Shown here: piece after piece, positions 4,803 to 21,652 of the stretch
How the letters are laid out: each line of letters starts with the position of its first letter
Position numbering within the stretch: the first letter of the stretch is position 1
Assembly (NCBI GenBank): GCA_002685895.1
Contig: NYYK01000002.1
Span: forward strand, 1 to 39,294
Source of the DNA: Methanobacteriota archaeon
GTDB taxonomy: Archaea; Thermoplasmatota; Poseidoniia; Poseidoniales; Thalassarchaeaceae
DNA length: 39,294 nt
Reading direction: 5' to 3'
Made by a program: the position numbers and the translations under genes
The notes under the pieces: generated by a model
Databases searched by the model: none
Told to the model about the DNA's origin: nothing
The model's input: only the letters and a program-made list of their open reading frames with translations

Positions 4803-5476
4803 AAAACTCCGGCAATAATATTCATTATTACAAGGAATGGCGTCATTATCCCAAACACCCATGTGGAAAGAATTGGAATATTAAATACCATCCCTGCGAT
4901 TATCAGTCCCAACAGAATTATCGGACCGCGTGCCATGAATTCAAAATATTCACGTTCATATCTAAGCGGAATGAAAGCGTAAAGAACTTTTGAACCGTCC
5001 AATGGATTAATCGGCAACAGATTGAATGCCATAAGAGCTAGATTTACAAAGATGCAACGGCTTAGAACGCGCTCGAGCATTATCATTACAGTAGAGCCTC
5101 CACCAGAGCCTCCAAGAAGTCCGATTGCAGATGTTGAGTTCCATTCAAAAAGTCCGATCATCAAAAAGAAACAAATAAACGCTGTGATCAGATTAGCCGC
5201 AGGGCCTGCGAGAGCTACAAGTGTAGTATCGCGTTTAACATTCTTAAAATATCGCGGATCAATAGGAACAGGTTTTGCCCAACCGAATCCAATTACAAAA
5301 AACATCAGTGTTCCTATCGGGTCCAGATGCGCGAGGGGATTGAGGCTGACACGATTATCCATCTTTGCTGTTGGATCCCCCAGTTTCAAAGCAATGTATC
5401 CGTGTGCAAACTCATGAACAGAGAGGCCGATTAAAACGGCGATGATGAAAGTAGGGTTTAGGAAAGTCATTGGCAC
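4799..5476 (-). CDS. site-2 protease family (peptidase M50) membrane metalloprotease
   Basis: 225 aa and polytopic. It has HEFAHGYIALKLGDPTAK (HExxH), LNPLAHLDPIGT and NLLPINPLDGSKV, all typical of M50 proteases. Confidence 0.88.
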   Translation of the reverse strand: MPMTFLNPTFIIAVLIGLSVHEFAHGYIALKLGDPTAKMDNRVSLNPLAHLDPIGTLMFFVIGFGWAKPVPIDPRYFKNVKRDTTLVALAGPAANLITAFICFFLMIGLFEWNSTSAIGLLGGSGGGSTVMIMLERVLSRCIFVNLALMAFNLLPINPLDGSKVLYAFIPLRYEREYFEFMARGPIILLGLIIAGMVFNIPILSTWVFGIMTPFLVIMNIIAGVL

Positions 5477-5519
5477 TACTTTAGCGCAGTATCTTACCCT
5501 TAGACAGACTCTCTTTGAT

Positions 5520-5750
5520 TTACTGAATTAAATCGTCATCTGTCTCGATAACCACTTGTCCAGGATAATGTGGTACCAAATCAGCAAGTAGTTTTTCAAC
5601 CTGCGATTTTATTTCTCCGGTATCGACGCCGGGAAGAGTCGTGACTACAAGAATATCGGGTGTAAAAGTAGCGCCTTCTACTCCTTCTATAGCAAGTACT
5701 TGTCCCCCTGCCTTTTCTGCTATACAGTGAGGATCTGGTCCGCGTCTCAT
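5520..5750 (-). CDS. hypothetical protein (76 aa)
   Basis: ORF only, with no recognisable motif. It is co-directional with, and 43 nt upstream of, the M50 protease gene. Confidence 0.4.
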   Translation of the reverse strand: MRRGPDPHCIAEKAGGQVLAIEGVEGATFTPDILVVTTLPGVDTGEIKSQVEKLLADLVPHYPGQVVIETDDDLIQ

Positions 5751-5840
5751 ATAGTTGTATTATAGCAGAATATGAGAAATAATCAAATAGCGTTAAATTT
5801 GTTGACGTATTCAATAACAAACCTTAGGCTTCTTTAGCTC

Positions 5841-6050
5841 ATGTCACGTAAATGCTCCAAGACTGGCAAAAAGACTGTTTTCGGAAATACCCGAAGCCAC
5901 TCGATGAGACATACAAGGCGCCAGTTCAAGCCGAATATTCAAAAGAAGCGAGTTTATGATCCTAAAACAAAGACTTACAAAGTTATAAAGGTCTCGACAA
6001 GTTACCTTCGAACTTTGGCGAAGAGAATGCAGGAGGGGAAGAAGGTTTGA
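5841..6050 (+). CDS. rpmB: 50S ribosomal protein L28
   Basis: MSRKCSKTGKKTVFGNTRSHSMRHTRRQFKPNIQKKRV... is a canonical L28 N-terminus. Confidence 0.93.
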   Translation: MSRKCSKTGKKTVFGNTRSHSMRHTRRQFKPNIQKKRVYDPKTKTYKVIKVSTSYLRTLAKRMQEGKKV

Positions 6051-6085
6051 TTCGGGTTCGGCTATCGGGTTCGGTTTTCGGGTTT
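6051..6085. repeat. TCGGGTT-type heptamer tandem repeat
   Basis: TTCGGGTTCGGCTATCGGGTTCGGTTTTCGGGTTT fills the convergent spacer between rpmB and the GGQ protein gene. Confidence 0.7.
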
Positions 6086-6086
6086 A

Positions 6087-6500
6087 TTATTCATCCTCCT
6101 CAGGATCCACTTTCTGCCTGGATTCCTTTTTATCAGCTTGGTGGTGCTTCTCTTCGAGCATCTTTTGCTTTGACCTTCTGGATCTGCGTTGTTTTTGCTT
6201 TTCTATCTTATGATGTTTCTGGGCAAGTTCCGATTTTGCGTCTAATTGCTCTTCCTCGATCTTATCAATTAATAACTCATAAGCTTCTTTTCTATTCTGA
6301 TGAAGACCTCTGTGATGCTGGTATCTGACTGTGATTCCAGTTGGCTCATGCGTCAGCTCCACACAATTGGTCGATTTATTGATCTTCTGGCCCCCATGCC
6401 CGCCGCCGCGCGTATGGTGCTCCTCGATATCCTCCAATTTGATCTCGAGCTTAGCTATCTTCTTCAAGTACTTTTGTTGTAGGTCATCTGGTAAGTGCAT
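6087..6500 (-). CDS. ArfB/ICT1-like GGQ-domain peptidyl-tRNA hydrolase (class I release-factor domain protein)
   Basis: 137 aa with GGHGGQKINKSTN (the GGQ motif), followed by a long Lys/Arg/Glu-rich C-terminal tail, as in ArfB-type rescue factors. Confidence 0.75.
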   Translation of the reverse strand: MHLPDDLQQKYLKKIAKLEIKLEDIEEHHTRGGGHGGQKINKSTNCVELTHEPTGITVRYQHHRGLHQNRKEAYELLIDKIEEEQLDAKSELAQKHHKIEKQKQRRSRRSKQKMLEEKHHQADKKESRQKVDPEEDE

Positions 6501-6504
6501 GACT

Positions 6505-6597
6505 CAAGTATTAAGTATTGAGTATTAAGTATCAAGTATGGAATGCCAGTTGTCTGAACCTTGATTTGCTTGATTACAGGATTAACTTGATTACAGA
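6505..6597. repeat. two adjacent word repeats (TAAGTAT x5; CTTGATT(ACAG) x3)
   Basis: CAAGTATTAAGTATTGAGTATTAAGTATCAAGTAT at 6505-6539, then CTTGATTTGCTTGATTACAGGATTAACTTGATTACAGAG at about 6560-6597. Confidence 0.7.
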
Positions 6598-6721
6598 GAA
6601 TTACCTTAAATCCTGTTTATCATGAAAATCATGTTGATCATGGTCTTTTTTGTAAGAATCACAAACCTCACTCGTCTTAAGCACTGTCACAGACACTTTT
6701 ATTCTTTCCCAACCATACTCA

Positions 6722-7111
6722 ATGAAAAGGCTCGACAGATTCGTATCACTCTCTCTATTAGGAGTCCTTACTGTTGCACTGGTGCCCGTAGCATCAGCAC
6801 AGGGACAATTCTGGGGACAAATTCCCGAAGGCGCTCGCGAGGAGCTTAGGGAATGCAAGGAAAAAGAAACAAGAGAAGAGAAACGCGAATGTGCGAAAGC
6901 GGTATTCGAGAAATACGACATCGATCCGCCTGTAAGACGTATACGTAGGCATTTCAAGCACAAGATAGGAAGAGGGGTTGGCAAATGTTTACGTTTAGAG
7001 GATAGAGGAGAGGCTTCACAATGCTTCCTTAACATTTACGACAAGGTGAAACAAATGAGGGAAGAAGGGGGACCCACGCACCAGAGCGCTAGCGCGCTCG
7101 GTTCGGGGTAA
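6722..7111 (+). CDS. secreted hypothetical protein (signal peptide, four Cys)
   Basis: 129 aa. The N-terminus MKRLDRFVSLSLLGVLTVALVPVASAQG looks like a Sec signal peptide. The mature part is charged and helical with paired Cys (RECKEK / RECAKA / GKCLRL / SQCF). Confidence 0.6.
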   Translation: MKRLDRFVSLSLLGVLTVALVPVASAQGQFWGQIPEGAREELRECKEKETREEKRECAKAVFEKYDIDPPVRRIRRHFKHKIGRGVGKCLRLEDRGEASQCFLNIYDKVKQMREEGGPTHQSASALGSG

Positions 7112-7112
7112 A

Positions 7113-7197
7113 AATCCTGAAGTGTAGTTTCAGGATTACATCATCGGAATACTGCTGCAGTTGATTACTGCGGCAGTATTTGTTAATTATTGGTTTT
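7113..7197 (+). terminator. two consecutive hairpins after the secreted-protein gene
   Basis: First hairpin: AATCCTGAA (7113-7121) / TTCAGGATT (7129-7137), a perfect 9-bp stem. Second hairpin: AATACTGCTGCAG / CTGCGGCAGTATT (7148-7180, 1 mismatch), followed by T-rich TGTTAATTATTGGTTTT. Confidence 0.45.
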
Positions 7198-7206
7198 AGT
7201 TGAGAG

Positions 7207-7289
7207 CAATTAGCAGATTAGCAATTAGCAATTGGCTTTTTTTTAATCAAAAAAATAGCCAATCTGCCAATCTGCCAATATGCTAATTG
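7207..7289. repeat. ATTAGCA/ATTGGC heptamer repeat with inverted arm (long hairpin)
   Basis: CAATTAGCAGATTAGCAATTAGCAATTGGCT, then T8AATCAAAAAAA, then TAGCCAATCTGCCAATCTGCCAATATGCTAATTG. It lies directly upstream of the ECF sigma gene. Confidence 0.8.
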
Positions 7290-7328
7290 CCGGTAATTTG
7301 TGTAAGAACATACCTCTTCATTCGTCTT

Positions 7329-7859
7329 ATGATCTGGATGCCCCATTCTTCCGTAGAACGCCGTTTCACAAAAGCGTACGACCTATACGCAGACTCGATC
7401 TTTAGACATTGTTACTTCCGGATTGGAGACAGAGAAAGGGGCAAAGAGCTGATGCAGGACGCATTCCTTAAAACCTGGGAGTACATCGCCAAGGGCAACG
7501 AAGTGGAAGATATGAGGGCATTTCTGTACCGTACGGCAAATAATCTGATAGTCGATCTGTACAGGCGTAGAGCCAAGAGGACAGAGGAGTCGTTCGAAGA
7601 CTTGCAGGAAAAAGGTTTCGATGTTGCAAGTTCAGAAAGAACCGAAAAGGAGACCGAAGAAGGTTTTACTTCAGATGAAGTAGTATCGGTGCTTGGCAAG
7701 ATAGAAGAGCCGTACAGATCAGCAGTAATAATGAGATACATTGATGATCTGAGTCCCAAGCAAATTGCACAGTCCCTTGGAGAATCGGTAAATGTAGTAT
7801 CCGTTCGAATAAACCGCGGAATGAAGAAGTTAAAGTCACTATTACCAAAATATGGATGA
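7329..7859 (+). CDS. ECF-type RNA polymerase sigma-70 family factor
   Basis: ORF 7287..7859 starts at a TTG inside the repeat, so I prefer the ATG at 7329 (or 7338). Region 2 is DAFLKTWEYI...FLYRTANNLIVDLYRRR. Region 4 is VIMRYIDDLSPKQIAQSLGESVNVVSVRINRGMKKLK. Confidence 0.85.
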   Translation: MIWMPHSSVERRFTKAYDLYADSIFRHCYFRIGDRERGKELMQDAFLKTWEYIAKGNEVEDMRAFLYRTANNLIVDLYRRRAKRTEESFEDLQEKGFDVASSERTEKETEEGFTSDEVVSVLGKIEEPYRSAVIMRYIDDLSPKQIAQSLGESVNVVSVRINRGMKKLKSLLPKYG

Positions 7860-8658
7860 ACTAGAAAAATTTTTGGCCTCAGCAAAAGCAGTATCCCTAT
7901 CGGATACAGAGCGTTGTGCAATGCGTGATGAGATATTTGCGGGAACCGTTGCAAAGTCGGTCACTGGCATTGAGCTAAGTAAGTGCGAAAAAAGGAGTTT
8001 TAAAAAAGAATTGAAAAGATTTATTAAATTGAATCCAATTGTTTCTTTTGGTAATTCGTTTGGAGGTCTTATGCATCTTAAGTTTGCTGCAACTGCTGTA
8101 ATTGCCGCGATTATTATTACTTCGACCGGCGGAGGAGTTGCATATGCGGCGGAGGATACTCTGCCCGGCGATCTGCTTTATCCGGTCAAGGTAAATGTTA
8201 CAGAGCCCTTGCGCGAGCACATGCATTTTAATAAAGATACTCGTGCACGATGGGCGGAAAAAAGACTCAAGCGCAGACTCTCGGAAGCGGAAGCACTTCT
8301 AAACAGGGGAGAAGTTTCTGATGAAAGAATGGAATGGATACAAAAACGCATTGCCATGCATCAAGTTCACTTAGAAAAAAGAATGCAGAGTTTGCCGGCA
8401 GGAATTCCCGGAGAGATCAGAAACCATTTGGAAGAACGTATGCAGGAGCATATTGATTTTCTAACTGCGATCGAAAAAGGTGAAATTCCAATGCCGAAAC
8501 TGGAAAGAGTACGCGGACATGCAAAAAAGCAAAGGATGCATATGCAGATGATCAGACAGAAGCCTCAAATGCAGCATCCAAAACTAAAGGAGAGGATGAG
8601 GGGAAAGGGGATGAAGCAGGGTGGGCTGTTTAAAGAAATGATTGAGGAGAGACATTAA
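7852..8658 (+). CDS. anti-sigma-like membrane protein with DUF5667-like extracytoplasmic domain
   Basis: Its ATG overlaps the sigma stop (ATGGATGA). It has a single TM (FAATAVIAAIIITSTGGGVAYA), then LPGDLLYPVKV and a helical, basic C-terminal part. Confidence 0.6.
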   Translation: MDELEKFLASAKAVSLSDTERCAMRDEIFAGTVAKSVTGIELSKCEKRSFKKELKRFIKLNPIVSFGNSFGGLMHLKFAATAVIAAIIITSTGGGVAYAAEDTLPGDLLYPVKVNVTEPLREHMHFNKDTRARWAEKRLKRRLSEAEALLNRGEVSDERMEWIQKRIAMHQVHLEKRMQSLPAGIPGEIRNHLEERMQEHIDFLTAIEKGEIPMPKLERVRGHAKKQRMHMQMIRQKPQMQHPKLKERMRGKGMKQGGLFKEMIEERH

Positions 8659-8665
8659 TAAATAA

Positions 8666-8693
8666 AACTTAGAACTTAGAACTTAGAGCTTAG
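8666..8693. repeat. AACTTAG heptamer x4
   Basis: AACTTAG AACTTAG AACTTAG AGCTTAG. The same word occurs at 19758-19799. Confidence 0.85.
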
Positions 8694-8720
8694 GGGCAGT
8701 TTTTGATATATCATTAGAGT

Positions 8721-8810
8721 GGAGGGATGGCTGAGTGGTCGAAAGCGCACGACTCGAAATCGTGTTAACCCTCACGGGTTACGAGGGTTCGAATCCCTCT
8801 CCCTCCGCCA
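8721..8810 (+). tRNA. tRNA-Ser (anticodon CGA), class II with long variable arm, CCA encoded
   Basis: Acceptor GGAGGGA / TCCCTCC. Anticodon stem CACGA / TCGTG with loop CU-CGA-AA (anticodon at 8755-8757). Variable arm AACCC-TCAC-GGGTT. T arm GAGGG-TTCGAAT-CCCTC. It ends in GCCA. Confidence 0.93.
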
Positions 8811-9121
8811 TGCATTACACTAATGGCACCCTAAGAATAGCTTCACTATAGGCAGCAAACTTCGTGCCTTTTACCCTTAAAATCCTATTTAGCTCTTGTT
8901 ATCCTTACAAGGGTACCAATCCTGCTTAGTTAGGTATATAGAACACTAAGGGCACTTTGAAAAGTTTTGTACCTGCTCTCATACGTGAAGATATTCTTAG
9001 GTTGCCAAACATTATCTGTCGAGTTTTCAGATATATATCTGGGGTAAACATTTGTATTTTTTTGCTTTAATTCTTCAAATCTGACTAGATAATGCTAGTT
9101 ATCTGATAAATTTACAAGATA

Positions 9122-12100
9122 TTATTCTTCAGTTTTCTCAATTTTGATTACCTCTTCTGGTGACAATTGAATCGGTAAGAATCCTTGCAAGGCAGATGAT
9201 AATTCTCCAGTTTCTAATGCTTTATGAACAGCAGGCTTTACAGATGTTTCAAAGGCTGCACGAAAGGCTTCGGGCACCTTTGCACTAACCTCATTCATTA
9301 TTGCAGCTTGCATCTTTGGATTCATACCACCAAGCAATGCTGAAACTATAACACGCATTAAATCATCTCGGCCTATAAACTGTGTGTACTCACCATCTGT
9401 TAATAATCCTTTTTGCACTTCTGTTACAAATGGGTCTAACTGTTTACCTTCTGCTTGTAATCTATCTCTCATTAGCCGCTCTTGTTCTACAAGGTCATTG
9501 AAGAATTGCTTTACTGTTTTTTCACCATTTAATGTACTTAGGAGTAATGATGCAAATTGCTGATAACCTTCTTCAGACCACTCATCCATTGCCATAGACT
9601 TAAAATCGAAGTGTCCGCTACATAATGAATCCCTTTTTACCTTAAGATTTCCACCATGACGATCAGAGTCAAATTTTCCTCGTAATTTGTTATTAATTTC
9701 TAAAGTTAGATTGATCATTGCATATTCCCTTTTTTCATCGCTTTCATCCTCTAGCTCAATGAAGTGATCACCTTCCATTTCGGTCATTAAGAAGAAGTTA
9801 TCACCTGCTGCAATTACATCAGGAGCATCAAATGTATACTGCCTTTCATCCATTGTAACAGTAGACTTTCGATAAATATCTGCAGCTGTACCGTATTGTA
9901 ATTTTGCAATACTACAGTCAGTCTCTATATCAAGACGACTACTTGCGTGTTGTACTAGTTCACGAGTGGTTTGCAGGGTAGTTTCACCCATTGCTGTTCC
10001 CAAATTATCAGCCATTCTACTCATAGTATCAAAACCAGCTCTTCCTCTTTCAAGAGAGTTTGGTCTAACAATTGATAGCATGTAGCTACCTCCATTACTA
10101 AGCTGAACTCTCGTAACTACATTAATTGAACCAGACCCAACCACATCGCCAATATGAGTTATAGTAGTTGGTTTACCAAAGTGCTGACTACACTGTCTTT
10201 CTAAATCCTCTTTTATTTCCTCTATCCACTCGGTTACTTCCCATCGTTCTGGTTCATCAGCATTATACTTTAAACGCTTTAGGTCTGTTCTTATGTCTTC
10301 AGGGACAAGTGGGTGACTTTGAGCTGCTTGACCAAATTTAGTTTCGGCAGGACCCATATTTTCAAGGAATAGTGCCAATGATTCGCCAAGTCTCATGGTG
10401 GTAACATCTTTCTTCTCAGAAGCAGACATCATAGCCGCTAAGCATAGATGCTTCTGATAATGAGGCAATGCGTCTACGTATGCTCTTATAAAATATCGTG
10501 ACTCTTGTTCATATAATCCACCGCCTGGGAATAACTTAGATATTGCATAGTCAAAAGTTTCTGCATCTACTGCACCCAATGAATCCTCTGGCGATATGAG
10601 CAATTCTCTTGAAAGAATAGCCCTAATCTCAATAGGTGCTGACCAGAAGTTTTCGTAAAAGTAACGAGTAGATTGCATGGCAAGCTGATACCTAAATGCA
10701 GAAAGTGCAGTATCAACTTGCTGTTCATCGCTTTCCGACTTTAGCGCGAAAGCACCTCTAATAGGATCATTTGGGTCTACAAACTCTAAGGCATCTATAG
10801 TCGAATCAATAAAATGTTTAGCTGAATTTAAAGAATAAGGAGTAGTCAAAAAATCTAAAGTAGATTGTCTATGCTCTGGCGATTTTCTAATGGCATCAAT
10901 ACATCCATCAGTTAAAATTCCATAGTATGCTGGCTTATCTATCATTTCTTTTGTTACTTCATAAACTTTATCCCTCATCACGCTACTCACTCTGTGCTGT
11001 GCTTCTACATCTTTTGCTAATTGACCAAGGATATGTTTCTGATCAACACGGTTAACATTGGCCTGTATTCTTTCTGAGATTGCTACTGCTTCTTGCTCGT
11101 ATTTACTACTGCCATCATCTATGCCATTAGCAGCCAGTACATTAGTAGACCAAAGCTCAATTAGTTCTGTTCTTAGTCCAGGATTTTGCACTCTACGACC
11201 ACCTAAAATTGTCTCACATAAACGTATCTGCTCATCTTGTGGCATACCACCATTACCATTTTTATGCTTAATTCGAGCTAATATTTTAGTTAAGACTTTA
11301 TCAACCATTTCTGGGAATATTAAATCAGCTTCACTCAATAGTTTCCACTGACGAACAGTGCCAGTTAGATTATTGGTACGACTTATGCTTCCAAGAAATG
11401 CGGTAGCAGATTTTGTTAATGCCTCTCGAAGATTTTCTTGGAATACAGAACCAGAAATATAATTTGCACCCATTACTTCTACAAGCTGGGCTGCCTCTTT
11501 CAATGATGGAGTTCTTTCAATCATTAATACAACAGCTTCTGCCATTAATACAGAAGTTCTTAAGCCCACTTCCTCTTCGCTCTCTTTTGATTCTGCTAAA
11601 ATAGACAAATACTTCTTCCAGGTACGTGGCTGCAATTCATAACTTTTATTCACATCGGTGAGAACCGAGTCCAGTTTTTTTATGTAAAGAGCAGCCAGCT
11701 CAGAATCGAATATAGGAAAACGTCCATCAAAATGACTTCTTTCCTCTTGACCCTTTATATATGTAATACTATCACCAGTGAGCAATTCCTCAAACAGCTC
11801 ATATTTTTCTTCTGGGCTAAAAACGCCAGTGTCTTCTTGGAGGATGAAAGTTATATAAGGGTTTCTTGATACTGCGAATTGATCTGTATCCACTGCATCT
11901 TCGTGATAACTTTCTAGCCTTTCTTCTGTCATACTAACAAATGCCATTTCACCAGGCATAGAGTTGGCTATCAGCTTTTTACCCTCCTCAGAATCAAACA
12001 ATTGTCGAACAGTATTCTGATAACGCTCTAAATCTTCATCCTTTAATTTCCTTAACCAATCCATAAAAGTTCGTATCCTTCTTTCCTCTGTAGTTAAAGG

Positions 12101-14464
12101 ACCTGAATTCAATTCAGTAAAAAGAGCAATATTATGATCACAATGCTCCATGCATATTGGAGGCCTATGTTCAAATGGATGCCAGATTTCAGTTAACCCT
12201 TTTAATTTTTGCAATGAGTTTGGATTGTCCGAATCTAAGAAATATGCAACTGCTCTAGTTGTTAAATGTAACTCCATTGCTCTACTTTCTTCTGATAAAT
12301 CTAAGGCACCTCTACCTAAAGATGTGCCAATTACTTCTCCTTCTTCATTATATCGAAGTTGCTCAAGTGTATCACCTTCACCAGATGGACCATTCGAGAT
12401 AGAGGGAATAATATTTATCGCTGCCTCTGAATTAAATGCTTCTTCTGACATATCAAACAAGGCAGCCATAGATTCTTTTTGCGCTGTCATTTGTTGCCCA
12501 GCACGGTCAAGAATGTAGTCGTATACCACATCGCCATGGTTACATAGTGCCTCAAAAACAAATGGATCACGTTTTAACCCTGCAAAAACTGCAGCTTTAG
12601 CAACTTGTGGATGTTGAGCACTTAACCTCCGAAGAGCATGCCATGGAGGTAGCTCTGGTATGTATTCATTTTCTTCGTCATCTCCATCTGAATCATCAGT
12701 TGAACTTTCCCAACTAAAACGGTCTTCATCATCGTCGAAATCATCACTTTCATCACCATAAATACCTTGTCCATAATCTGTATCGTAAAAGCTTTTCACT
12801 TCTTCTTCTTCTTCTTCTTCTTGGTCTATCTCTTCTCTACGCAAATCCTTACTTTCAACAATTGCATCTACATTAGGGAAGGAAAACTGATTCCATTTTA
12901 TACCTCTTAAGAAGTTAACTCCTTTTAGAGTTCCATGCAGATTTTCACTTTCAACCACCTGAACCAGTTTGTCTGCTGCTTGTAAAACAGCTTCTTTGTC
13001 TATTTCCTCTTCATTAATTCCATCAACTGTTTCAACAAATTTAGCAATCGCGGTGCCAACTTTTCTTAGTCTCCCTAGTGGTTTTGAAGAACGTGTAAGC
13101 GATCTAAGTTCTCCATATAGATAGTCCAAGTGACTAAAGCGTCGCTTTGCATCTTCATGCTCATCATCATCGGAGATTGTAAGCAATGTATCCGCCAACC
13201 TATGAATTGCACCCATGTCTTTACTAGTTTCTACTGACTCTCTTAATGATTTTATTTCGTCTCCTATATCCGTAATGCGAGTGCTGTATCTACGATCTAA
13301 TGCGGATAATATTCTACCTAATGTATCCAATTTTTCTGATACTGTAGCAGCTTCATAATTTTCAACTTCAGAAAGACGATTTGCTAGATATGACTGGTGT
13401 TGTGCATTATTTACTACAGTCATTATTCTATCGCTGTTGTTGTAATCGGGTAACTCATTTTCTTCTGGTGCAAGCTCACCATTCTCTTTGCGAAGGTATG
13501 CAAGTGTATCACTGACAACAGAACGGATATTATCATGCGTAGGATGAACATCCATGTACTTAGACCAGCTGTCATATGCTTTCAGTTGAGAATTCATAAC
13601 ATTATATATGCCTGAAGTACCATCTTCATCCATCACGCGTTCGGGGTTTAATCCAAGCTCTCTACCATGTTCATACATGATGGCTAATGGCAATGCGTAT
13701 GCAAAACCTTCTTCAATTTTTGAATTAGGAATATTGCCATATACCTTACGCATTTTCATGTGAGTCATTTCGTGGCAAAGAATTGCTGCCAAATCATGTG
13801 GAGATGTTACAAATGGTCTAAAAACCTTACCTTCTTTTTCTTTGCTCTTGTATTCTCTGAATAATCCTTCTGTAAGCACAATGATAGGTGGCTTACTGTG
13901 TCTCATAAACCATGCATTTGGCTCTTTTTGTTTAGAGAGCATAAATCTAACAGGTTCTTTCTCAAAGTCATGGTGCTTAAATTCATAATGTGGCAAATGT
14001 GCCTTGCTAGGGTCTTCTTTGTACAAGGTAGCTACAAAAGTTTGTATCATATCTTGAAATTCCTTACCTTCGGCTGAGCTTGGCTCAACCAATCGCCAAG
14101 ATTCTGCAATTGGCAGTGGAATCTCTCCTTTTTCTAAAGCTTCAATGATGGCATCTTTTTCTTCAGCGTCATCATCAGGCTCGTCTCCGTTACCCTCTGT
14201 GTCATCAGCTATTTCATCTTCATCCAATTCATCTATTTCTACCATGCTAGTATCTGCTGTAGCTGCCATTCTTAACCGATAGCCACTAGCAAGCCTACCT
14301 GTGGAGATAGTTGGCTGTTCAGGAATGGTGTTTTTAGGGTCTAAGCGTTCATCTAGTAAATCTCTAATTCGTGTACGACCTTCATCAACATCTTTGAGGT
14401 TGTTTTTAGGGGGAATCTTGGAAGTTCCAGCCAAATCTTTGTTTTCATCTAATGGTTGCATCAT
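9122..14464 (-). CDS. giant multidomain protein (1780 aa): N-terminal HExxH gluzincin-like module, acidic linkers, C-terminal UbiB/ABC1-like kinase module
   Basis: The ORF is uninterrupted. The protease-like motif is AAILCHEMTHMKMRKVYGNIPNSKIEEGFAYALP, i.e. HExxH with a downstream EEGxA as in MA-clan gluzincins. The C-terminus has MGPAETKFGQAAQSHPLVPEDI (a KxGQ-type motif), VVGSGSINVV, SIVRPN, KFDSDRHGGNLKV and HFDFKSM, collinear with ABC1/UbiB kinase motifs. There are two Asp/Glu-rich tracts. Confidence 0.8.
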   Translation of the reverse strand: MMQPLDENKDLAGTSKIPPKNNLKDVDEGRTRIRDLLDERLDPKNTIPEQPTISTGRLASGYRLRMAATADTSMVEIDELDEDEIADDTEGNGDEPDDDAEEKDAIIEALEKGEIPLPIAESWRLVEPSSAEGKEFQDMIQTFVATLYKEDPSKAHLPHYEFKHHDFEKEPVRFMLSKQKEPNAWFMRHSKPPIIVLTEGLFREYKSKEKEGKVFRPFVTSPHDLAAILCHEMTHMKMRKVYGNIPNSKIEEGFAYALPLAIMYEHGRELGLNPERVMDEDGTSGIYNVMNSQLKAYDSWSKYMDVHPTHDNIRSVVSDTLAYLRKENGELAPEENELPDYNNSDRIMTVVNNAQHQSYLANRLSEVENYEAATVSEKLDTLGRILSALDRRYSTRITDIGDEIKSLRESVETSKDMGAIHRLADTLLTISDDDEHEDAKRRFSHLDYLYGELRSLTRSSKPLGRLRKVGTAIAKFVETVDGINEEEIDKEAVLQAADKLVQVVESENLHGTLKGVNFLRGIKWNQFSFPNVDAIVESKDLRREEIDQEEEEEEEVKSFYDTDYGQGIYGDESDDFDDDEDRFSWESSTDDSDGDDEENEYIPELPPWHALRRLSAQHPQVAKAAVFAGLKRDPFVFEALCNHGDVVYDYILDRAGQQMTAQKESMAALFDMSEEAFNSEAAINIIPSISNGPSGEGDTLEQLRYNEEGEVIGTSLGRGALDLSEESRAMELHLTTRAVAYFLDSDNPNSLQKLKGLTEIWHPFEHRPPICMEHCDHNIALFTELNSGPLTTEERRIRTFMDWLRKLKDEDLERYQNTVRQLFDSEEGKKLIANSMPGEMAFVSMTEERLESYHEDAVDTDQFAVSRNPYITFILQEDTGVFSPEEKYELFEELLTGDSITYIKGQEERSHFDGRFPIFDSELAALYIKKLDSVLTDVNKSYELQPRTWKKYLSILAESKESEEEVGLRTSVLMAEAVVLMIERTPSLKEAAQLVEVMGANYISGSVFQENLREALTKSATAFLGSISRTNNLTGTVRQWKLLSEADLIFPEMVDKVLTKILARIKHKNGNGGMPQDEQIRLCETILGGRRVQNPGLRTELIELWSTNVLAANGIDDGSSKYEQEAVAISERIQANVNRVDQKHILGQLAKDVEAQHRVSSVMRDKVYEVTKEMIDKPAYYGILTDGCIDAIRKSPEHRQSTLDFLTTPYSLNSAKHFIDSTIDALEFVDPNDPIRGAFALKSESDEQQVDTALSAFRYQLAMQSTRYFYENFWSAPIEIRAILSRELLISPEDSLGAVDAETFDYAISKLFPGGGLYEQESRYFIRAYVDALPHYQKHLCLAAMMSASEKKDVTTMRLGESLALFLENMGPAETKFGQAAQSHPLVPEDIRTDLKRLKYNADEPERWEVTEWIEEIKEDLERQCSQHFGKPTTITHIGDVVGSGSINVVTRVQLSNGGSYMLSIVRPNSLERGRAGFDTMSRMADNLGTAMGETTLQTTRELVQHASSRLDIETDCSIAKLQYGTAADIYRKSTVTMDERQYTFDAPDVIAAGDNFFLMTEMEGDHFIELEDESDEKREYAMINLTLEINNKLRGKFDSDRHGGNLKVKRDSLCSGHFDFKSMAMDEWSEEGYQQFASLLLSTLNGEKTVKQFFNDLVEQERLMRDRLQAEGKQLDPFVTEVQKGLLTDGEYTQFIGRDDLMRVIVSALLGGMNPKMQAAIMNEVSAKVPEAFRAAFETSVKPAVHKALETGELSSALQGFLPIQLSPEEVIKIEKTEE

Positions 14465-14679
14465 TGTATTTTATCGCATTTATTGGATGATATCTATCCT
14501 TTATATGCAATTCAAGCCACTAAGCAACATAACAAAGTTCCTTTTTCTCTTCCTCAAACTCCAACATCTCCAACCTTCTATTCAATTCCGTCAGCCCAGA
14601 AAGTAGAGTAAGGATGTCTCCGTAGGGTTCCTTTTTCAACTGATAAGCTCCACCTTAATCGAGTTAAAAAGTGCTATTC

Positions 14680-15903
14680 CTACAGCATTATCCGCCCCTC
14701 CTTCAGCAACAACCTCTCCTTAAAATTCCTCAGCACATTGCTTTTCTCTAAACTCGATCCCTCACGAAAAATCCCAATCAAGTATTCTTCAATGCTGATA
14801 GGATCGTTCTCTGGTCGGAAGCGATTAATCTTCGCAAGATCCTCTTTAATTCTGCGGTTTAACCGTAGGTGTTTCTCTTTAATCTTGCCAATAATGGCGG
14901 CTGCCTCTTCAAACAGTGCTTCCTCTCGTATGTACTTACATTTACACACTCTCGTACCACCATACTTATTGCACTTGTAATACACATAGGTTTTACCGTG
15001 CCGATTCGTATGTTCAGTGCCACTAACACCAGACCCACATTCCGCACACTTCAGTACTTGATTGAAGTAAAAATTCTTACGACCCCATTTACCCTTAGCC
15101 GTGCGTTTAAGGCTACCTTGTACCTTGGTGAATAATTCCTTGCTAATAATAGGCTTATGATTCCCTTGGTATCGAATACCTCCGTACACAAATTCTCCGT
15201 AATAAAAGGGCTCTTGAAGTATGTTAAAGATACGGCTAAACCCCACCGTACCACCACTAATATTTCTAAATCCTTCCTGTTGTAGTTTTTCTTTTGCCTC
15301 TCTGCCTGTCATACCTTTCTCGGCTATGTTGGTAAAAAGTTTCTTAATGTACGGTGCTCGTTCTTCATCTACCACTATAGAACTAGGATCACCAAAGCGG
15401 TCGGCTCGCACCAGCTTATAGCCAATAGGAGGTCGACCTGGTCGTACTCCCATCTCACACTTGGTACGCAGGCCACGTTTTACATTCTTACTTCGATTAT
15501 CGTTCTCTAGCTTCGCTTGACTACAAAGAATCATCAGTAAAAACTTTTCGTCTGGGGTGTTGGTAAAGGTTTGTCCGCTCGTTTGAATTTGCACCAGTAC
15601 CTGTTGATCCATTAAGTCGACTAGCTTTCCTAGGTCACCAGCATTTCTACTTAAGCGATCTGGTGCCCACGTTAAGATTGCGTTGAATCTTCGTTCTTGG
15701 AGTCCTATTAGTAGGCTTTGATATCCTTTTCTTCCGCCAGAATCTTTAGCAGATTTACTTTCTTGAATCGTTTCTACAACTTTAAGACCCTGTTTATCTG
15801 CAATCTTCTGCATGGCTGCAATCTGTGAATCAATGGAAAGAGCTTGTCGCTCATCTGATTCAGATGATTTACGAGCGTAGAGGCAGTGGGTAGTCTTTTC
15901 CAT
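14680..15903 (-). CDS. large serine recombinase (resolvase/invertase catalytic domain + recombinase domain + zinc ribbon)
   Basis: ORF 14680..15963. The likely start is Met21 at 15903 (or Met18 at 15912), so that the catalytic LYARKSSESDERQ lies near the N-terminus. Other motifs: DRLSRN, RPPIGYK, and a Cys-rich CAECGSGV...YYKCNKYGGTRVCKCKY. Confidence 0.88.
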   Translation of the reverse strand: MEKTTHCLYARKSSESDERQALSIDSQIAAMQKIADKQGLKVVETIQESKSAKDSGGRKGYQSLLIGLQERRFNAILTWAPDRLSRNAGDLGKLVDLMDQQVLVQIQTSGQTFTNTPDEKFLLMILCSQAKLENDNRSKNVKRGLRTKCEMGVRPGRPPIGYKLVRADRFGDPSSIVVDEERAPYIKKLFTNIAEKGMTGREAKEKLQQEGFRNISGGTVGFSRIFNILQEPFYYGEFVYGGIRYQGNHKPIISKELFTKVQGSLKRTAKGKWGRKNFYFNQVLKCAECGSGVSGTEHTNRHGKTYVYYKCNKYGGTRVCKCKYIREEALFEEAAAIIGKIKEKHLRLNRRIKEDLAKINRFRPENDPISIEEYLIGIFREGSSLEKSNVLRNFKERLLLKEGRIML

Positions 15904-16031
15904 GTACCTCATGGATGACGCAACCGCGTCCCAAAGGCTAGGCGATTTTACGCTTAAATACATCTTCTAAAGAACTAGAATTTGTTATTCTATAAATATG
16001 TCAAGCCCTTGCAAACGGAACAGAATTTCCC

Positions 16032-16097
16032 CCTTTTTATAGGTGTTCCATTTGTTCCATTTCTCCTTTTTTTATAGTGTCTCATTTGTCTCAATTT
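16032..16097. repeat. tandem ~33-bp direct repeat upstream of the recombinase gene
   Basis: Copy A: CCTTTTTATAGGTGTTCCATTTGTTCCATTT (16032-16062). Copy B: CCTTTTTTTATAGTGTCTCATTTGTCTCAATTT (16065-16097). Each copy contains an internal GTYYCATTT doublet. Confidence 0.7.
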
Positions 16098-16403
16098 AAA
16101 GACAAGAATACTATTCAAAGGGTAGGAGACCTGTATGCTCCGCCATGGCCACTCACTTCGTTCGGGTTCATAGCAAGCCACCAGAGCTGATATAGCCTTA
16201 TAAGAGCCCAATTTGCGACTTTCCGCTACCTTGAAAGGAAAGATTTATAGTTCTTGTTGGGCTAGATTGACTAATATAGTTCAACTGGAGATTTTGGCTT
16301 GTATTAGCCAATTCGCGATAGAATATGCAATTTTCCCACATAATGCGCTCGATCTGTCAATTGAAAATTCACTCTAAAACACCCAATTGAATCAAGAATT
16401 TGC

Positions 16404-16433
16404 TTGCAGAGCTCCTCGGGACATGCGTAAAAT
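16404..16433 (+). promoter_or_regulatory. candidate sigma-70 promoter of the histone-fold gene
   Basis: TTGCAG, 18 nt, TAAAAT, ending about 35 nt upstream of the ATG at 16468. This is a pattern match only. Confidence 0.3.
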
Positions 16434-16467
16434 CTCCATGTTCTTTAATTACTTACCCACTACTCCT

Positions 16468-16638
16468 ATGAGTTACGTAGTAGCTTCCAAGATCAAAGAT
16501 CTTGTAAAAGCAAAAGGTATGATGTCATCTGGTGACCTCTCAGACGCTGCAAGCGCACTTCTAGAGGACGCAGTTTCCAAAGCTGTCGCACGCGCAAAAG
16601 CAAACGGCAGAAAGACTGTTCGCCCAGAAGACCTTTAG
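16468..16638 (+). CDS. bacterial histone-fold protein (HBb/Bd0055-like, DUF1931-type singlet)
   Basis: ORF 16387..16638 begins at a TTG; the ATG at 16468 gives 56 aa: MSYVVASKIKDLVKAKGMMSSGDLSDAASALLEDAVSKAVARAKANGRKTVRPEDL. It aligns by eye with my recollection of the Bdellovibrio histone (VVTSKVKKLIKEKGQM...AKADGRKTV..RDI). The C-terminal GRKTVxxED motif is typical of histone folds. Confidence 0.75.
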   Translation: MSYVVASKIKDLVKAKGMMSSGDLSDAASALLEDAVSKAVARAKANGRKTVRPEDL

Positions 16639-16660
16639 TCTTAATTCGTTAAGTAATCAA

Positions 16661-16687
16661 AAAGGACACCGCGTGGTGTCTTTTTTG
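16661..16687 (+). terminator. Rho-independent terminator of the histone-fold gene
   Basis: AAAGGACACC-GCGT-GGTGTC followed by TTTTTT. Confidence 0.7.
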
Positions 16688-16694
16688 ATTGTAA

Positions 16695-16795
16695 GAAATA
16701 CAAAATACGAAACACGAAACAAATTAAAAATCCGAAAAAATAAAGTTTCAGATTTTGTATTTCGGATTTGTTTCAGATTTCGGATTTAGAATTTG
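16695..16795. repeat. GAAATAC/GAAACAC word repeat with inverted arm
   Basis: GAAATACAAAATACGAAACACGAAACAAATTAAAAATCCGAAA faces TTTCAGATTTTGTATTTCGGATTTGTTTCAGATTTCGGATTT. It fills the convergent spacer between the histone gene and prfB. Confidence 0.75.
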
Positions 16796-16804
16796 AATTA
16801 GTTA

Positions 16805-17882
16805 TTAACCGCGCTTCAATTCCGAATCTATGAATTGTTGTAGATCCCCATCTAACACATCCTCCGTATCACTTGTCTCAACTTCAGTCCTCAAGTCCTT
16901 AACCATCTGATATGGATGTAAGACGTAACTTCTAATTTGCTGTCCGAAGTCTGCACTTTTGGTTGCCCCCTTTAATTCCTTTTTCTTTTCGGTGTCTTCT
17001 TCACGTTGTTTTTCCAAAAGCTTAGCTCGCAGAATATTCATAGCTTGTATCCTGTTTTGTTGTTGGCTTCTTTCATTCTGACATGAAACAACTATGCCGC
17101 TAGGTGCGTGAGTAATTCTTACGGCTGAGTCAGTAACATTAACATGTTGTCCTCCTGCTCCGCTCGATCTGAATGTATCGACTCGTAAATCTTTTTCATC
17201 AATTTCAACTTCAGTCGACTCAGCAATTTCCGGAATAACTTCCACTAGAGCAAAACTAGTTTGCCTCAGATTTTTTGCATTAAAAGGGGAGAGGCGAACT
17301 AGGCGATGTGTTCCGCGTTCACATTTCAGATATCCATAAGAAGGAGATCCTGTTACATGAACTGTTACTGATTTAATTCCTGCTTCCTGCCCATTAGTTT
17401 TTTCCAAAGTATCTGTCTTCCATCCCTGTCTTTCGCAGTACCTCAGATACATTCTAAGAAGCATCTCCGCCCAATCTTGCGCCTCGGTTCCTCCCGCACC
17501 TCCGCTGATTGAAAGATAACAGTTATTCATATCAAACTCTCCACTCAGATAAAGTTGCGTCTCAATTTCCTCCCACCTACTCAGCAATTTTGCTGTCTCT
17601 TCCTCCATACTGGGGCGATCGGATTCCTCAGCTTGTCCAATCAATTCAATTAAATCCCTTGTCTCCTCAGCCAAATCCCGCACAGGCTCCCATTGGCTTT
17701 TAAGTGCCTTTAGCTCTGTAAACAAGGCATTGGCAGCCTTTTGATCATCCCAAATATCAGGGGCTTGTGATTTCTTTTCAAGCTCGGCTATACACTCAGG
17801 AATCTTCCTGGCATCAAAGAGAGTCCTTCCCCGTGTTTACGGCTGTTTGAAGTTCCTTTAATTTAGTTAGCAAGTCCTCCAT
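16805..17882 (-). CDS. prfB: peptide chain release factor 2, requires programmed +1 frameshift
   Basis: Frame 0 runs 17882..17817 (MEDLLTKLKELQTAVNTGKDSL) into an in-frame TGA at 17816-17814. A +1 shift at CTT TGA T continues DARKIPECIAELEKK... into ORF 16805..17725. SPF (RLSPFNAKN) and GGQ (SGAGGQHVN) motifs are present. Confidence 0.92.
17814..17834 (-). promoter_or_regulatory. RF2 autoregulatory +1 frameshift site
   Basis: Minus-strand ACG GGG AAG GAC TCT CTT TGA. The CUU UGA slippery/stop context has a purine-rich GGGGAAGGA upstream. Confidence 0.85.
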
Positions 17883-17937
17883 GAGGAAGGGGGAAAGTAA
17901 GTATCTGACTATTATTATAGCATTAGTGCCTCTGATA

Positions 17938-17976
17938 CAGAATTGATAATTCAGAATTGATAATTGAGAATTAAAG
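17938..17976. repeat. AATTGAT/AATTCAG/AATTGAG heptamer repeat
   Basis: CAGAATTGATAATTCAGAATTGATAATTGAGAATTAAAG, in the divergent spacer between prfB and the DUF1653 gene. Confidence 0.75.
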
Positions 17977-17977
17977 A

Positions 17978-18196
17978 GTGTTAGAGCCAGGTATTTATAA
18001 GCATTACAAAGGCAAGAAATATCGTGTTCTTGGAATCGCCAAACATAGCGAAACCCTCGAAGATTTGGTTGTGTATGAGGCTTTGTATGAAAATGAGAAT
18101 TCTAAGCTTTGGGTGAGGTCCGTGGATATGTTTAAGGAGCGATTAGTCATAAATGGCAGGGAAGTACCCAGATTTGAGTTTATTTCGTCACAATAA
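17978..18196 (+). CDS. DUF1653 domain protein
   Basis: YKHYKGKKYRVLGIAKHSETLEDLVVYEALYENENSKLWVRSVDMF...VPRFEF matches the DUF1653 pattern. The start is GTG. Confidence 0.75.
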   Translation: MLEPGIYKHYKGKKYRVLGIAKHSETLEDLVVYEALYENENSKLWVRSVDMFKERLVINGREVPRFEFISSQ

Positions 18197-18284
18197 ATCT
18201 TAACTGGCAAGTATCATAAATAGCTCTAAATCGCGTTTTCCGCTATAATTAGAGGATAGTAACTTGTATTGAGCCCGTCGAAAT

Positions 18285-18915
18285 ATGCCCAAAACAAATA
18301 CAAAAACTTCAGCTACTCATCCATCTGTGGGAGACGTACTCCACCACGTTTCTGTGCCGTTTCTTATATTCACAGCAGTTCTTTTGGGATTCTTGTCATT
18401 ATCAGCAACTTTGATTCTCCCTCAATTGACGCAGGTTGATATTGCTGGAAAAGAACACGATGCAGTAGAACTAAAGGAGCTTGTTAAGAAATTGGATACG
18501 AGAGTGCAGGAATTGGAGAGAGCAAGAGGAGAATTTGTAACCCCGCTTCGCGAGGGGCTTTTTGGAGATGCTATGGACCAGAAATACAACTCGAGAGATT
18601 TACTTTTGTTTAAATCTCAATTGGAGGAAATAACGCAACAAATTGAAACTGCCAGCCTACGCCAAGGCTACGGCCGGCGAGAAAACAAAGATACAATAAG
18701 TATTAGTTCGATGACGTTTGATCAGGAAGAGTTAAGTTTAAAAGTGGAAGGCAAGGTCCAGAATGTTGGCCCGAGAAGCATGACTGTTCTCGCACAATTT
18801 ATAAATGCTGCACAAGAATCTAAGTGGGTCTCTGATATAAGCCCTCCGAAATTCACTCGCGAACATGACGACGAGAATGGTTTTTATTCTCCATTTATTT
18901 TCACACTTCTATTAA

Positions 18916-18923
<8 letters not shown>
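18285..18923 (+). CDS. membrane-anchored coiled-coil protein (possibly PilN-like)
   Basis: 212 aa with an N-terminal TM (VPFLIFTAVLLGFLSLSATLIL), a coiled coil, then ISISSMTFDQEELSLKVEGKVQN...VLAQFINAAQES. That C-terminal part resembles the PilN layout, which is a weak call made by eye. Confidence 0.55.
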
Positions 18924-19799
<876 letters not shown>

Positions 19800-19804
19800 G
19801 TTTT

Positions 19805-19833
19805 TTGTATTGTTTCCCTTGTATAAGTATAAA
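19805..19833 (+). promoter_or_regulatory. candidate sigma-70 promoter for infC-rpmI-rplT
   Basis: TTGTAT, 17 nt, TATAAA, ending 27 nt upstream of the infC ATG. This is a pattern match only. Confidence 0.35.
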
Positions 19834-19859
19834 TACCCCTTTAACATCCTTCTGATCTA

Positions 19860-20420: not shown

Positions 20421-20426
20421 AGGGGT

Positions 20427-20538
20427 GTCAAATTGCTAAATTGTTCGACAGAGCGTTACGCACGCTGGTTTCTGCAATTTATAGTATCTTAAGTTATTTA
20501 TTCACTCTGTGAGCAATTTGGCAATTTAACAATTTAAC
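20427..20538. promoter_or_regulatory. long imperfect hairpin built from AATTG-word repeats in the infC-rpmI spacer
   Basis: Left arm GTCAAATTGCTAAATTGTTCGACAGAG (20427-20453). Right arm CTCTGTGAGCAATTTGGCAATTTAAC (20505-20530). About 22 of 26 positions are complementary, around a loop of about 51 nt. An extra AATTTAAC unit extends to 20538. Confidence 0.55.
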
Positions 20539-20600
20539 TTATTTACCACTTTCTTAAGTTTTTTCTTTTCTTAGACTGAATCTTCAATATAATCTCCCCA

Positions 20601-21137: not shown

Positions 21138-21225
21138 ATAGTGAAAAGTGAATAGTGAATAGTGCTTTATAAAATATGATTCTCTTTAGTAACTATTCAC
21201 TTTTAACTATTAACTATTCACTATT
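21133..21225. terminator. AGTGAAT/AGTGAAA heptamer repeat with inverted arm, candidate bidirectional terminator
   Basis: AGTGAATAGTGAAAAGTGAATAGTGAATAGTG faces AACTATTCACTTTTAACTATTAACTATTCACTATT. It lies between convergent rplT and the 134-aa membrane protein gene. Confidence 0.6.
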
Positions 21226-21625: not shown

Positions 21626-21652
21626 AGTGAGAGTAGCTTATCAGTCAACTAC

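Follow-up and report, generated by a model that had tools for sequence, protein, structure and literature searches.

Characterised large serine recombinases (LSRs) mostly target protein-coding or intergenic sites. Integrative islands in tRNA genes are known from another family of enzymes: the islands and prophages of tyrosine integrases (P4-type, Islander/TIGER) insert into the 3' end of a tRNA gene, the tRNA is rebuilt, and its end is repeated at the far boundary of the insert. tRNA and tmRNA genes are typical chromosomal attachment (attB) sites (PMC12884075). Here we describe a locus in contig NYYK01000002.1 (positions 1 to 39,294; this whole stretch of 39,294 nt is called the window), where an LSR gene and one giant gene stand beside a tRNA-Ser gene. 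Judged by the names of identical proteins and by the gene content, the window belongs to a marine Candidatus Peribacteraceae genome (Peregrinibacteria, candidate phyla radiation, CPR). Its heptamer repeats had suggested a cyanobacterium, a reading that was rejected in view of these names and of a V/A-type ATPase in the window. We consider it likely that the locus is a compact phage-derived integrative element, the LSR of which inserts into the tRNA-Ser gene at its 3' end and which offers a single exchangeable cargo slot; its current mobility is unproven. While tRNA-gene integrative islands as such are known, the new features here are the compact serine (not tyrosine) integrase and the single exchangeable slot. 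Relative or co-occurring contigs and loci that were compared with the window carry L-numbers.

The target tRNA-Ser(CGA) gene (8721-8810, plus strand) is intact and its CCA is encoded (ARAGORN; Rfam tRNA, 63 bits). Between this gene and a histone-fold gene (DUF1931/bacterial histone, 16423-16638; PDB 9qt0, E=3e-8), after which prfB follows, there are only two credible open reading frames (ORFs), both on the minus strand: the giant cargo ORF of 1780 aa (9122-14464, from the ORF list) and the LSR, an ORF of 427 aa (14680-15963) recognised by its Pfam domains. The 10-mer CTCCGCCATG occurs exactly at 8803-8812 and at 16138-16147, the latter 175 nt from the recombinase ORF, and the distance between the two starts is 7,335 bp. 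The tRNA gene, the recombinase, the giant ORF and the 10-mer had been described in an earlier note on this DNA, made from the sequence alone, and were found where it had placed them. The left copy (8803-8812, plus strand) consists of a core, CTCCGCCA (8803-8810), which comprises the acceptor 3' strand, the discriminator base and the CCA of the tRNA, and of TG, which finishes the 10-mer. By itself such a repeat carries little weight: chance alone would give 1.5 matches per window if one mismatch is tolerated, and the earlier note had allowed for a coincidence. This possibility has to be given up in view of the right copy, which forms the end of a conserved block, TGGCGGAG-CATnnnGGTCTCCTACCC. 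Here TGGCGGAG is CTCCGCCA, the 8 nt with which tRNA-Ser ends, in reverse complement. The block was met again in at least six flanks without relation to one another, and the similarity breaks off precisely at TGGCGGAG; in the window, L010, L033, L035, L036 and L048 the block terminates as TGGCGGAG-CAT(N3)GGTCTCCTACCC, and the flanks beyond are unrelated. Since the right copy ends a conserved block, the repeat is not a chance match, and the earlier placement of the element ends at the 10-mer can be retained; the left core likewise agrees with the conserved end of the recombinase-side block at other loci.

On the recombinase side the conserved upstream block (15964-16119, minus strand) contains a promoter-like site at 15987-16015 (promoter-like sites are defined throughout by a consensus scan only) and a 2 x 34-nt repeat with paired 9-mers at 16024-16097. 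This block is conserved in L010, L033, L035, L036 and L048, the recombinases of which are 71-91% identical and the surroundings of which differ. Read on the recombinase strand, 16024-16097 consists of two units, each a doubled 9-mer followed by TATAAAAAGG (ATGAGACAAATGAGACAC-TATAAAAAAAGG and ATGGAACAAATGGAACACC-TATAAAAAGG); a third such unit is present in L010, L033 and L035. The units may serve as operators or as sites for accessory proteins. The element's right end (16120-16147, plus strand) is made up of the P' arm GGGTAGGAGACCTGTATG, the core CTCCGCCA (16138-16145) and TG. Its reverse complement TGGCGGAGCATACAGGTCTCCTACCC fits the consensus TGGCGGAGCATGTGGGTCTCCTACCC derived from L010, L033, L034, L035 and L048, and variants of it were recognised in L036, L038, L045, L060, L066, L073 and L112. 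The P' motif with an adjacent core was also detected 0.2-10 kb upstream of the recombinase in L034, L045, L060, L066, L073 and L112; in the last five of these the recombinase is only 43-49% identical and the half-site is still present. The core beside P' is TGGCGGAG or (A/T)TGCGGAG in these loci, and in L045, which stands beside a tRNA-Gln gene, it is TGGCTGAG/TGGCTAAG.

On the tRNA side the core is followed by the 22-nt P arm TGCATTACACTAATGGCACCCT (8811-8832, plus strand), which is identical in a strain with alternative cargo (L128): no mismatch was found up to 8832, against 56 mismatches in 8833-8988. The P arm forms the beginning of a conserved non-coding module of ~180 nt (8811-8988, plus strand) with an internal direct repeat, CACTAATGGCAC (8818-8829) and CACTAAGGGCAC (8944-8955). 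Because the arm and the module are conserved beside tRNA-Ser genes of the cga, gga and tga type (L011, L016, L033, L035, L048), both belong to the element and not to the host. The module matched no Rfam family, RNAalifold gave only weak covariation on both strands, and a possible 18-codon micro-ORF starting at its cargo-side end is not claimed, as its ATG is missing in L128. Joining the two ends gives the reconstructed phage-type attachment site (attP) GGGTGCCATTAGTGTAATGCA-TGGCGGAG-CATACAGGTCTCCTACCC, with dyad symmetry in TGTAATGC / GCATACA and in GGGT / ACCC; the predicted attP sequence of the element is GGGTAGGAGACCTGTATGCTCCGCCATGCATTACACTAATGGCACCC, and the predicted attB is the tRNA 3' end followed by GGCCACTCACTTCG, with the junction sequence GGTTCGAATCCCTCTCCCTCCGCCATGGCCACTCACTTCGTTCGGG. 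A lineage-specific spacer of 55 nt (16148-16202), delimited by BLAST boundaries at 16203, separates the right core from the sequence that the window has in common with L011 and L015. By a weak inference, it may represent the 5' half, now decayed, of a tRNA-Ser copy that was older and had the opposite orientation; it shares AAGCCACC with a half-tRNA remnant in L015, as seen by eye, and a MAFFT alignment was uninformative. Position 1 of the Logan contig L009 is the first base of the core (TGGCGGAGCATACAGG...). This is only suggestive, and could reflect a branch of the assembly graph at the att core, that is, alternative left flanks in that sample.

The position of the tRNA relative to the recombinase was found to be a property of the family. 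Of the 63 loci with enough flanking sequence, 26 have an opposite-strand tRNA gene no more than 1.5 kb downstream of the stop codon of the recombinase (tRNA-Ser in 19 cases, otherwise tRNA-Gln, tRNA-Asn or tRNA-Lys); none of the 63 has a same-strand tRNA gene within this distance downstream, and none of 69 loci has a tRNA gene within 1.5 kb upstream of the recombinase. Among the closer relatives, L011 and L016 (recombinase 88% identical) have the same flanks as the window and carry PBP1C, alpha-2-macroglobulin and a 376-aa ORF as cargo, and the more distant L033 occupies the same interval from prfB/histone to tRNA-Ser(cga) with NUDIX, radical-SAM (weak pVip match), HAD, AAA_28 and SEC-C genes. 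The L035 element (recombinase 90% identical) stands at tRNA-Ser(gga) and has an unrelated 1893-aa ORF; L048, whose truncated recombinase is 88% identical over the remaining fragment, stands at tRNA-Ser(tga); and L010 (recombinase 91% identical) has the same end motif and no tRNA gene. The insert of L011 has further components, namely a truncated terminase gene, a second LSR pseudogene (truncated, 33% identical), a phosphoesterase and a helicase; it measures 16 kb and is flanked by two full, inverted, 98% identical tRNA-Ser(CGA) genes (4020-4109 and 20207-20296), and it looks like two integrative elements head to head. In L036 a 30-nt sequence with a truncated tRNA-Ser 3' end (TGGCGGAGAGAGGGGGATTACTTCGTGACG) occurs at 4022-4051 and at 9610-9639; a P arm stands before the second copy, from which it is 150 nt to the core and P' arm of the recombinase-bearing element, and the duplication suggests tandem accretion of elements.

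The recombinase has the complete domain set of a phage-type serine integrase: PF00239 Resolvase (80.4 bits), PF07508 Recombinase (49.3 bits) and PF13408 Zn_ribbon_recom (35.9 bits). It falls into PHROG integrase family 95 (E=2e-64) and matches the A118 and TP901-1 integrase structures in PDB (A118 integrase C-terminal domain, E=2.7e-7). The catalytic motifs YARKSS...Q and DRLSR, which represent the serine nucleophile and the conserved arginines of the resolvase domain, are invariant across 11 homologs. The homologs begin at the equivalent of M21 (window position 15903), and a tail of ~85 aa follows the zinc ribbon. Integration by attP x attB recombination is predicted for this enzyme. In L037 an intact gene of the terminase large subunit stands directly upstream of the recombinase, a truncated terminase is present in L011 as mentioned, and ten relatives were found in IMG/VR contigs, from which it follows that the family derived from temperate phages. 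The version in the window retains only the recombinase, the two ends and one slot. The ratio of nonsynonymous to synonymous substitutions (dN/dS) of the recombinase is 0.02-0.04 for the window versus L010, L011, L034 and L035, with saturated dS (>1); the recombinase backbone is old and functionally constrained, under very strong purifying selection.

Composition separates the two genes of the block. Its G+C content is 39.0%, against 43.0% in the rest of the window, and the earlier note had taken the whole block to be poor in G+C. This holds for the giant ORF, with a G+C content of 38.5% and a G+C content at third codon positions (GC3) of 26.3%, which is 3.6 standard deviations below the mean of 31 other genes (41.1 +/- 4.1%). 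It does not hold for the recombinase, which at 43.0% G+C and 40.7% GC3 is host-like (the same 31 genes have 43.5 +/- 2.3% G+C). The V-type ATPase A and B genes have a G+C content of ~47.5%, and the V/A-type ATPase operon (A, B and D subunits, 21653-26355) is the region of highest G+C in the window (~47-48%). The absence of short word repeats from the spacers of the block, also claimed earlier, is mostly correct: TRF finds tandem arrays of 7-9-mers in most host spacers, and in the non-coding DNA of the block only the 2 x 34-nt repeat with 9-mer doublets at 16024-16097, which the claim had overlooked. The description of the whole as recently acquired can be kept for the cargo only, since the composition of the recombinase and of both ends is like that of the host, and very strong purifying selection acts on the recombinase. 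The cargo is foreign and the backbone is old.

Comparison of co-occurring strains showed that the cargo is exchanged as a unit. L128 and L125 are 98.8% identical to the window over 4476-8988, with 5 mismatches in 4476-7800, none in 7800-8832 and then the 56 mismatches in 8833-8988 mentioned above, beyond which there is no homology. On the other side, L021, L020 and L023 are 99.87% identical over 14689-25536, with no mismatch in 14707-16400 and full divergence left of 14689. L128 and L021 come from the same sample, and several contigs from other samples also break at the two junctions. According to these comparisons and the mismatch map the segment that differs, and hence the exchanged unit, is 8833-14706 (minus strand). 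Unchanged are the tRNA with the 22-nt P arm, the entire recombinase and the P' end; the cargo proper (8989-14688) has no homology to the cargo of the other strain. The swapped segment includes the spacer between the recombinase and the giant ORF (14465-14679, minus strand), with promoter-like hexamers upstream of the giant ORF at 14468-14515. The cargo of L128/L125 consists of a 186-aa ORF and an ORF of at least 1628 aa. The latter (5305-10191 in L128) and the giant of L035 (11714-17395, 1893 aa) share an HD-like region of ~400 aa (27% identity, E=3e-30), and neither of the two giant ORFs has a Pfam match. The recent event at this locus is a cargo swap between otherwise near-identical strains. 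No common recombination-site motif was seen at the cassette junctions of the window, L128/L021, L011, L033 and L035, for which reason we infer a homologous double crossover between related elements and not a second site-specific system.

The comparative evidence thus supports the earlier proposal of an integrative element built on an LSR, with the giant gene as its sole payload here, and the following mechanism can be suggested. By analogy with known LSR action, a circular attP (P-core-P') would recombine with the attB in the tRNA gene; through a crossover within CTCCGCCA the element would be inserted and the tRNA restored. In the window, the core on the tRNA side is followed by the element-borne P arm and the ~180-nt module, and on the far side the P' half-site and the ~150-nt promoter block lead directly into the recombinase gene. 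The backbone, that is, the recombinase and both ends, is a long resident of the locus under functional constraint, and the slot from the module to the recombinase stop codon accepts interchangeable cargo, here one horizontally acquired giant gene. Cargo exchange would most likely take place by a double crossover, with the first exchange in the region of the tRNA and P arm and the second in the final codons of the recombinase gene. The element encodes no directionality factor, so that its excision is likely to depend on a helper phage, if it takes place at all.

The closest approach to an unoccupied site is L015, a GTDB metagenome-assembled genome with ~88% identical flanks, in which window positions 7301-8605 are joined to 16203-19752 via 175 nt and neither the recombinase nor the giant gene is present. 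The earlier note had asked for such an empty site in relatives, and L015 provides it as far as the lack of both genes is concerned, but its site is rearranged. Its tRNA-Ser(CGA) is only 84.6% identical and lies on the other strand, its DUF5667 gene is truncated, and it keeps a half-tRNA remnant, so it is not a clean attB. At 8538-8680 of L015 the divergent tRNA-Ser(CGA) is followed by 13 nt and then by a decayed 5' half-tRNA-Ser that abuts the histone flank; the DUF5667 gene is ~14 codons shorter, and these are traces of earlier events at the hotspot. It should be emphasized that this and several other results weigh against an integrative element of the proposed kind. Every contig of the same species that crosses the site is occupied, so no empty site was found in the species itself; neither a circular junction, nor an empty attB, nor an excision product was seen in the assembled contigs; and the predicted right arm of attB (16148-16202) occurs in no other genome. 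According to the ORF list and Pfam, the element encodes neither a recombination directionality factor nor other phage genes. In ~50 relatives the DNA upstream of the recombinase was searched for long direct repeats of the tRNA end, which would mark the element boundaries, with no consistent result; repeat length was dropped as a criterion, since long repeats are not expected for LSRs. Finally, the low dN/dS and the fixed chromosomal position of the recombinase also fit a domesticated gene.

In such a case the locus would be a fixed remnant in which the recombinase has taken over a host role (landing pad, resolving), and the cargo would change only by ordinary homologous recombination after DNA uptake. 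We regard this as a serious, though less likely, explanation. It would agree with the host-like G+C and GC3 of the recombinase and with its dN/dS at saturated dS, with the same chromosomal position in the window, L011, L016 and L033, with the missing directionality factor, phage genes and empty site in the own species, and with swap breakpoints that lie inside the backbone homology and not at the cores. It does not explain, however, why backbones with 88-91% identical recombinases are found at other tRNA-Ser isoacceptors (L035, L048) and in a context lacking a tRNA (L010), from which it follows that movement took place after the backbone had been formed; both half-sites and the core are intact and conserved, which would be needless for a fixed gene; and decayed copies elsewhere, such as the truncated recombinase of L048, indicate that loss occurs when the constraint lapses. 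That the cassettes themselves are moved by the recombinase at secondary sites (~8833 and ~14700), in an integron-like manner and in place of the whole element, seems very improbable to us. The cassette limits are sharp in strains with ~99.9% identical backbones and the slot of every close relative holds a different cargo, as integron-like capture would have it, but the two junctions have no site motif in common, and on the right the cassette stops where the recombinase ORF ends, while a divergent homologous module follows the left limit, just as homologous crossover between related elements predicts.

The boundaries of the insert can be questioned as well. If the tRNA itself belonged to the inserted DNA, the limits would be ~8606 (last codons of DUF5667) and ~16202, and the 8-10-bp repeat would be incidental. 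The stop of the L015 homology at 8605 and its resumption at 16203 point in this direction, together with the strand and the low identity of the L015 tRNA-Ser and with the two inverted tRNA-Ser(CGA) copies around the L011 insert. Against this stands the observation that at many loci with differing flanks the core adjoining the P' motif fits the 3' end of the neighbouring tRNA; furthermore, the adjacency of the tRNA is fixed in strand and side across the family, in L033, L035 and L048 the tRNA is still accompanied by the P arm and the module, with different genes upstream, and L015 is rearranged, with its half-tRNA remnant and truncated DUF5667 gene. Altogether we consider an insert that includes the tRNA unlikely. 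The simplest alternative, two ordinary chromosomal genes with a chance 10-mer and no island, can draw on the expected frequency of such a match (1.5 per window with one mismatch) and is hardly credible beside the conserved end motif, the tRNA geometry of the family, the absence of both genes in L015, the cargo swap and the GC3 outlier. The integrative element with an LSR, a tRNA-Ser target and one cargo slot consequently remains our preferred explanation.

The giant cargo protein of 1780 aa is acidic and lacks both a signal peptide and transmembrane helices (maximum KD19 hydropathy 1.22). At aa 166-259 (13688-13969, minus strand) it has an M48-like metallopeptidase region (PF01435, 27.2 bits against a cut-off of 20.3), which is matched by 5 of the 7 family members; the HEXXH motif, HEMTH, stands at aa 231-235 (13760-13774), with Glu251/252 following. 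The motif forms part of the consensus of the family, in which T234, H235, E251 and E252 are invariant. An AlphaFold2 (AF2) model of the N-terminal part (aa 100-560, mean confidence score pLDDT 76) gave no significant fold match in PDB. At aa ~1327-1648 (9521-10486, minus strand) lies a UbiB/ABC1-type protein-kinase-like domain with the motifs KFGQ, FDSDRHGGN and HFDF, which are conserved in the family, most of their residues being invariant columns. The AF2 model of the C-terminal 540 aa (pLDDT 77.7) has MSMEG_1954, Rv3197 and ADCK3/COQ8A as its top Foldseek matches (among the PDB entries 7cyr, 4ped and 5yk2), with E values of 1e-7 to 1e-6, while the UbiB profile scores stay below the curated cut-offs (PF03109, 17.6 against 22.9 bits; TIGR01982, 41 against 488 bits). 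On the basis of the profile matches and the models, the protein joins an M48-like HEXXH domain and a UbiB/ABC1 kinase-like domain, both with putative activities. Its sequence matched nothing in PDB or PHROG, and nothing in PADLOC but a marginal CARF3 (E=0.0034).

A word-indexed search returned 7 homologs of the giant protein. This family size was discarded after an exhaustive profile search with the N-terminal region, which gave 251 cluster representatives. Of these, 154 had E<=1e-10, and the majority measured 1,450-1,750 aa; the names of the members in their sources are 'AarF/UbiB family protein', 'M48 family metalloprotease' and 'hypothetical protein'. The contexts of the family vary: P0129 is found among ordinary chromosomal genes, and two members adjoin type IV or Tad pilus genes. 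In L027 (6914-14423; also L028 and L029), from freshwater Peribacteria, a 44%-identical homolog directly follows a tyrosine integrase and lies 1.3 kb from the 3' end of tRNA-Pro(CGG), and a search for the end of tRNA-Pro as a direct repeat yielded nothing but 8-mers with altered spacing; L029 departs from L027 upstream of a breakpoint within the integrase gene. Judged by these sequence contexts, the giant gene is a member of a widespread uncharacterised family that has been taken up by integrative elements of two unrelated recombinase types.

Beyond this locus, it is a speculative idea, to which we assign only a small weight, that a minimal, phage-derived LSR lineage of Peregrinibacteria (CPR) might function as a single-slot exchange platform at tRNA-Ser, in which the recombinase and the two ends are constrained like housekeeping sequences and the slot is refilled with giant or defence genes that vary among co-occurring strains, and that it might generate strain-level diversity for host interaction or conflict in these episymbionts. 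Examples of slot contents are the M48-UbiB protein here, the HD-domain giants in L128 and L035, the A2M-PBP1C (A2M, alpha-2-macroglobulin) cargo in L011 and a Hhe-like nuclease-helicase by the L036 recombinase. Defence-type genes near related recombinases include this Hhe/PDC-S37-like helicase-nuclease (L036, 11214-16683, E=3e-133), the weakly pVip-like radical-SAM gene of L033 with the adjoining AAA_28 kinase-like gene (5327-7743), and a Shedu (SduA_C) gene with DNA methyltransferases in L014 (2501-6644). Our literature search on LSR islands in Peregrinibacteria found nothing, and little has been charted of the mobile elements of CPR bacteria and of their variation at strain level; here giant genes are exchanged as single units between otherwise identical marine strains. 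The locus provides a testable att-site model (core, P arm, P' arm) for a family of ~410-aa serine integrases targeting tRNA-Ser 3' ends, which could help to understand how genes move among Peregrinibacteria; the enzyme might also be of use as a small integrase whose target can be predicted. The M48-like plus UbiB family and the HD-domain family are candidates for host-interaction or conflict functions.

Two features of the remaining window may be added. The arrays of the host spacers contain 3-6 copies of a 7-9-mer, the word differing from spacer to spacer (1166-1235, 3325-3388, 3567-3674, 6506-6593, 16695-16795, 28575-28653, 33042-33118 and other spacers); pairs of mutually reverse-complementary arrays exist in several of them, so that a long hairpin is possible there, and the arrays may be terminators or another spacer-specific element. 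The prfB gene (release factor 2, RF2; 16805-17882, minus strand) has a programmed +1 frameshift site, CTT TGA T, at 17813-17819; its short first ORF begins at 17882, and the frameshift explains the missing N-terminus of the listed ORF.

Compared with described proteins, the C-terminal domain of the cargo resembles the UbiB/ABC1 kinases (COQ8A/ADCK3, Rv3197, MSMEG_1954) in its KxGQ motif, its catalytic loop FDSDRHGGN, its DFG-like HFDF and its top Foldseek matches. It differs from them in being embedded in a protein of ~1,600-1,800 aa with an N-terminal HEXXH domain and a long helical middle part, and in having no membrane anchor. Unlike the M48 peptidases Ste24 and HtpX, the cargo protein has no transmembrane segment, and its N-terminal model has no recognisable fold match.

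The element itself is closest to the phage-type serine integrases (A118, TP901-1, Bxb1, phiC31), with which it shares the Resolvase, Recombinase and zinc-ribbon architecture, the A118 and TP901-1 structure matches, PHROG 95, a short core, imperfectly symmetric half-sites and, in its relatives, a terminase beside the recombinase. It differs from them in that the enzyme is compact (~410 aa) and targets the extreme 3' end of tRNA-Ser, the 8-bp core rebuilding the tRNA, and in that the phage has been reduced to the recombinase, two ends and one cargo slot with no directionality factor. It has in common with the tyrosine-integrase islands, besides the mode of insertion, the variable and compositionally odd cargo and the tandem remnants, whereas its recombinase belongs to the unrelated serine family, its repeat is only 8-10 bp long and it has a single cargo slot. 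XisF of cyanobacteria is likewise an LSR flanking an insert with short direct repeats, and there is a weak NCBIfam match to it, but the XisF equivalog was ruled out by its score (84 against 375 bits); here no gene is interrupted, no XisH/XisI partners are present, and the host is not a cyanobacterium. SCCmec elements, finally, are moved by the LSRs of the Ccr group at the 3' end of one conserved gene and also combine a conserved recombinase with highly variable cargo and the accretion of remnants. CcrB is the top NCBIfam match of our recombinase, but scores far under the cut-offs (CcrB 101 against 900 bits, CcrA 68 against 700, CcrC 59 against 900) rule out a Ccr equivalog, and the present element has one recombinase and no CcrA/CcrB pair, a tRNA and not rlmH as its target, and a host from the CPR.

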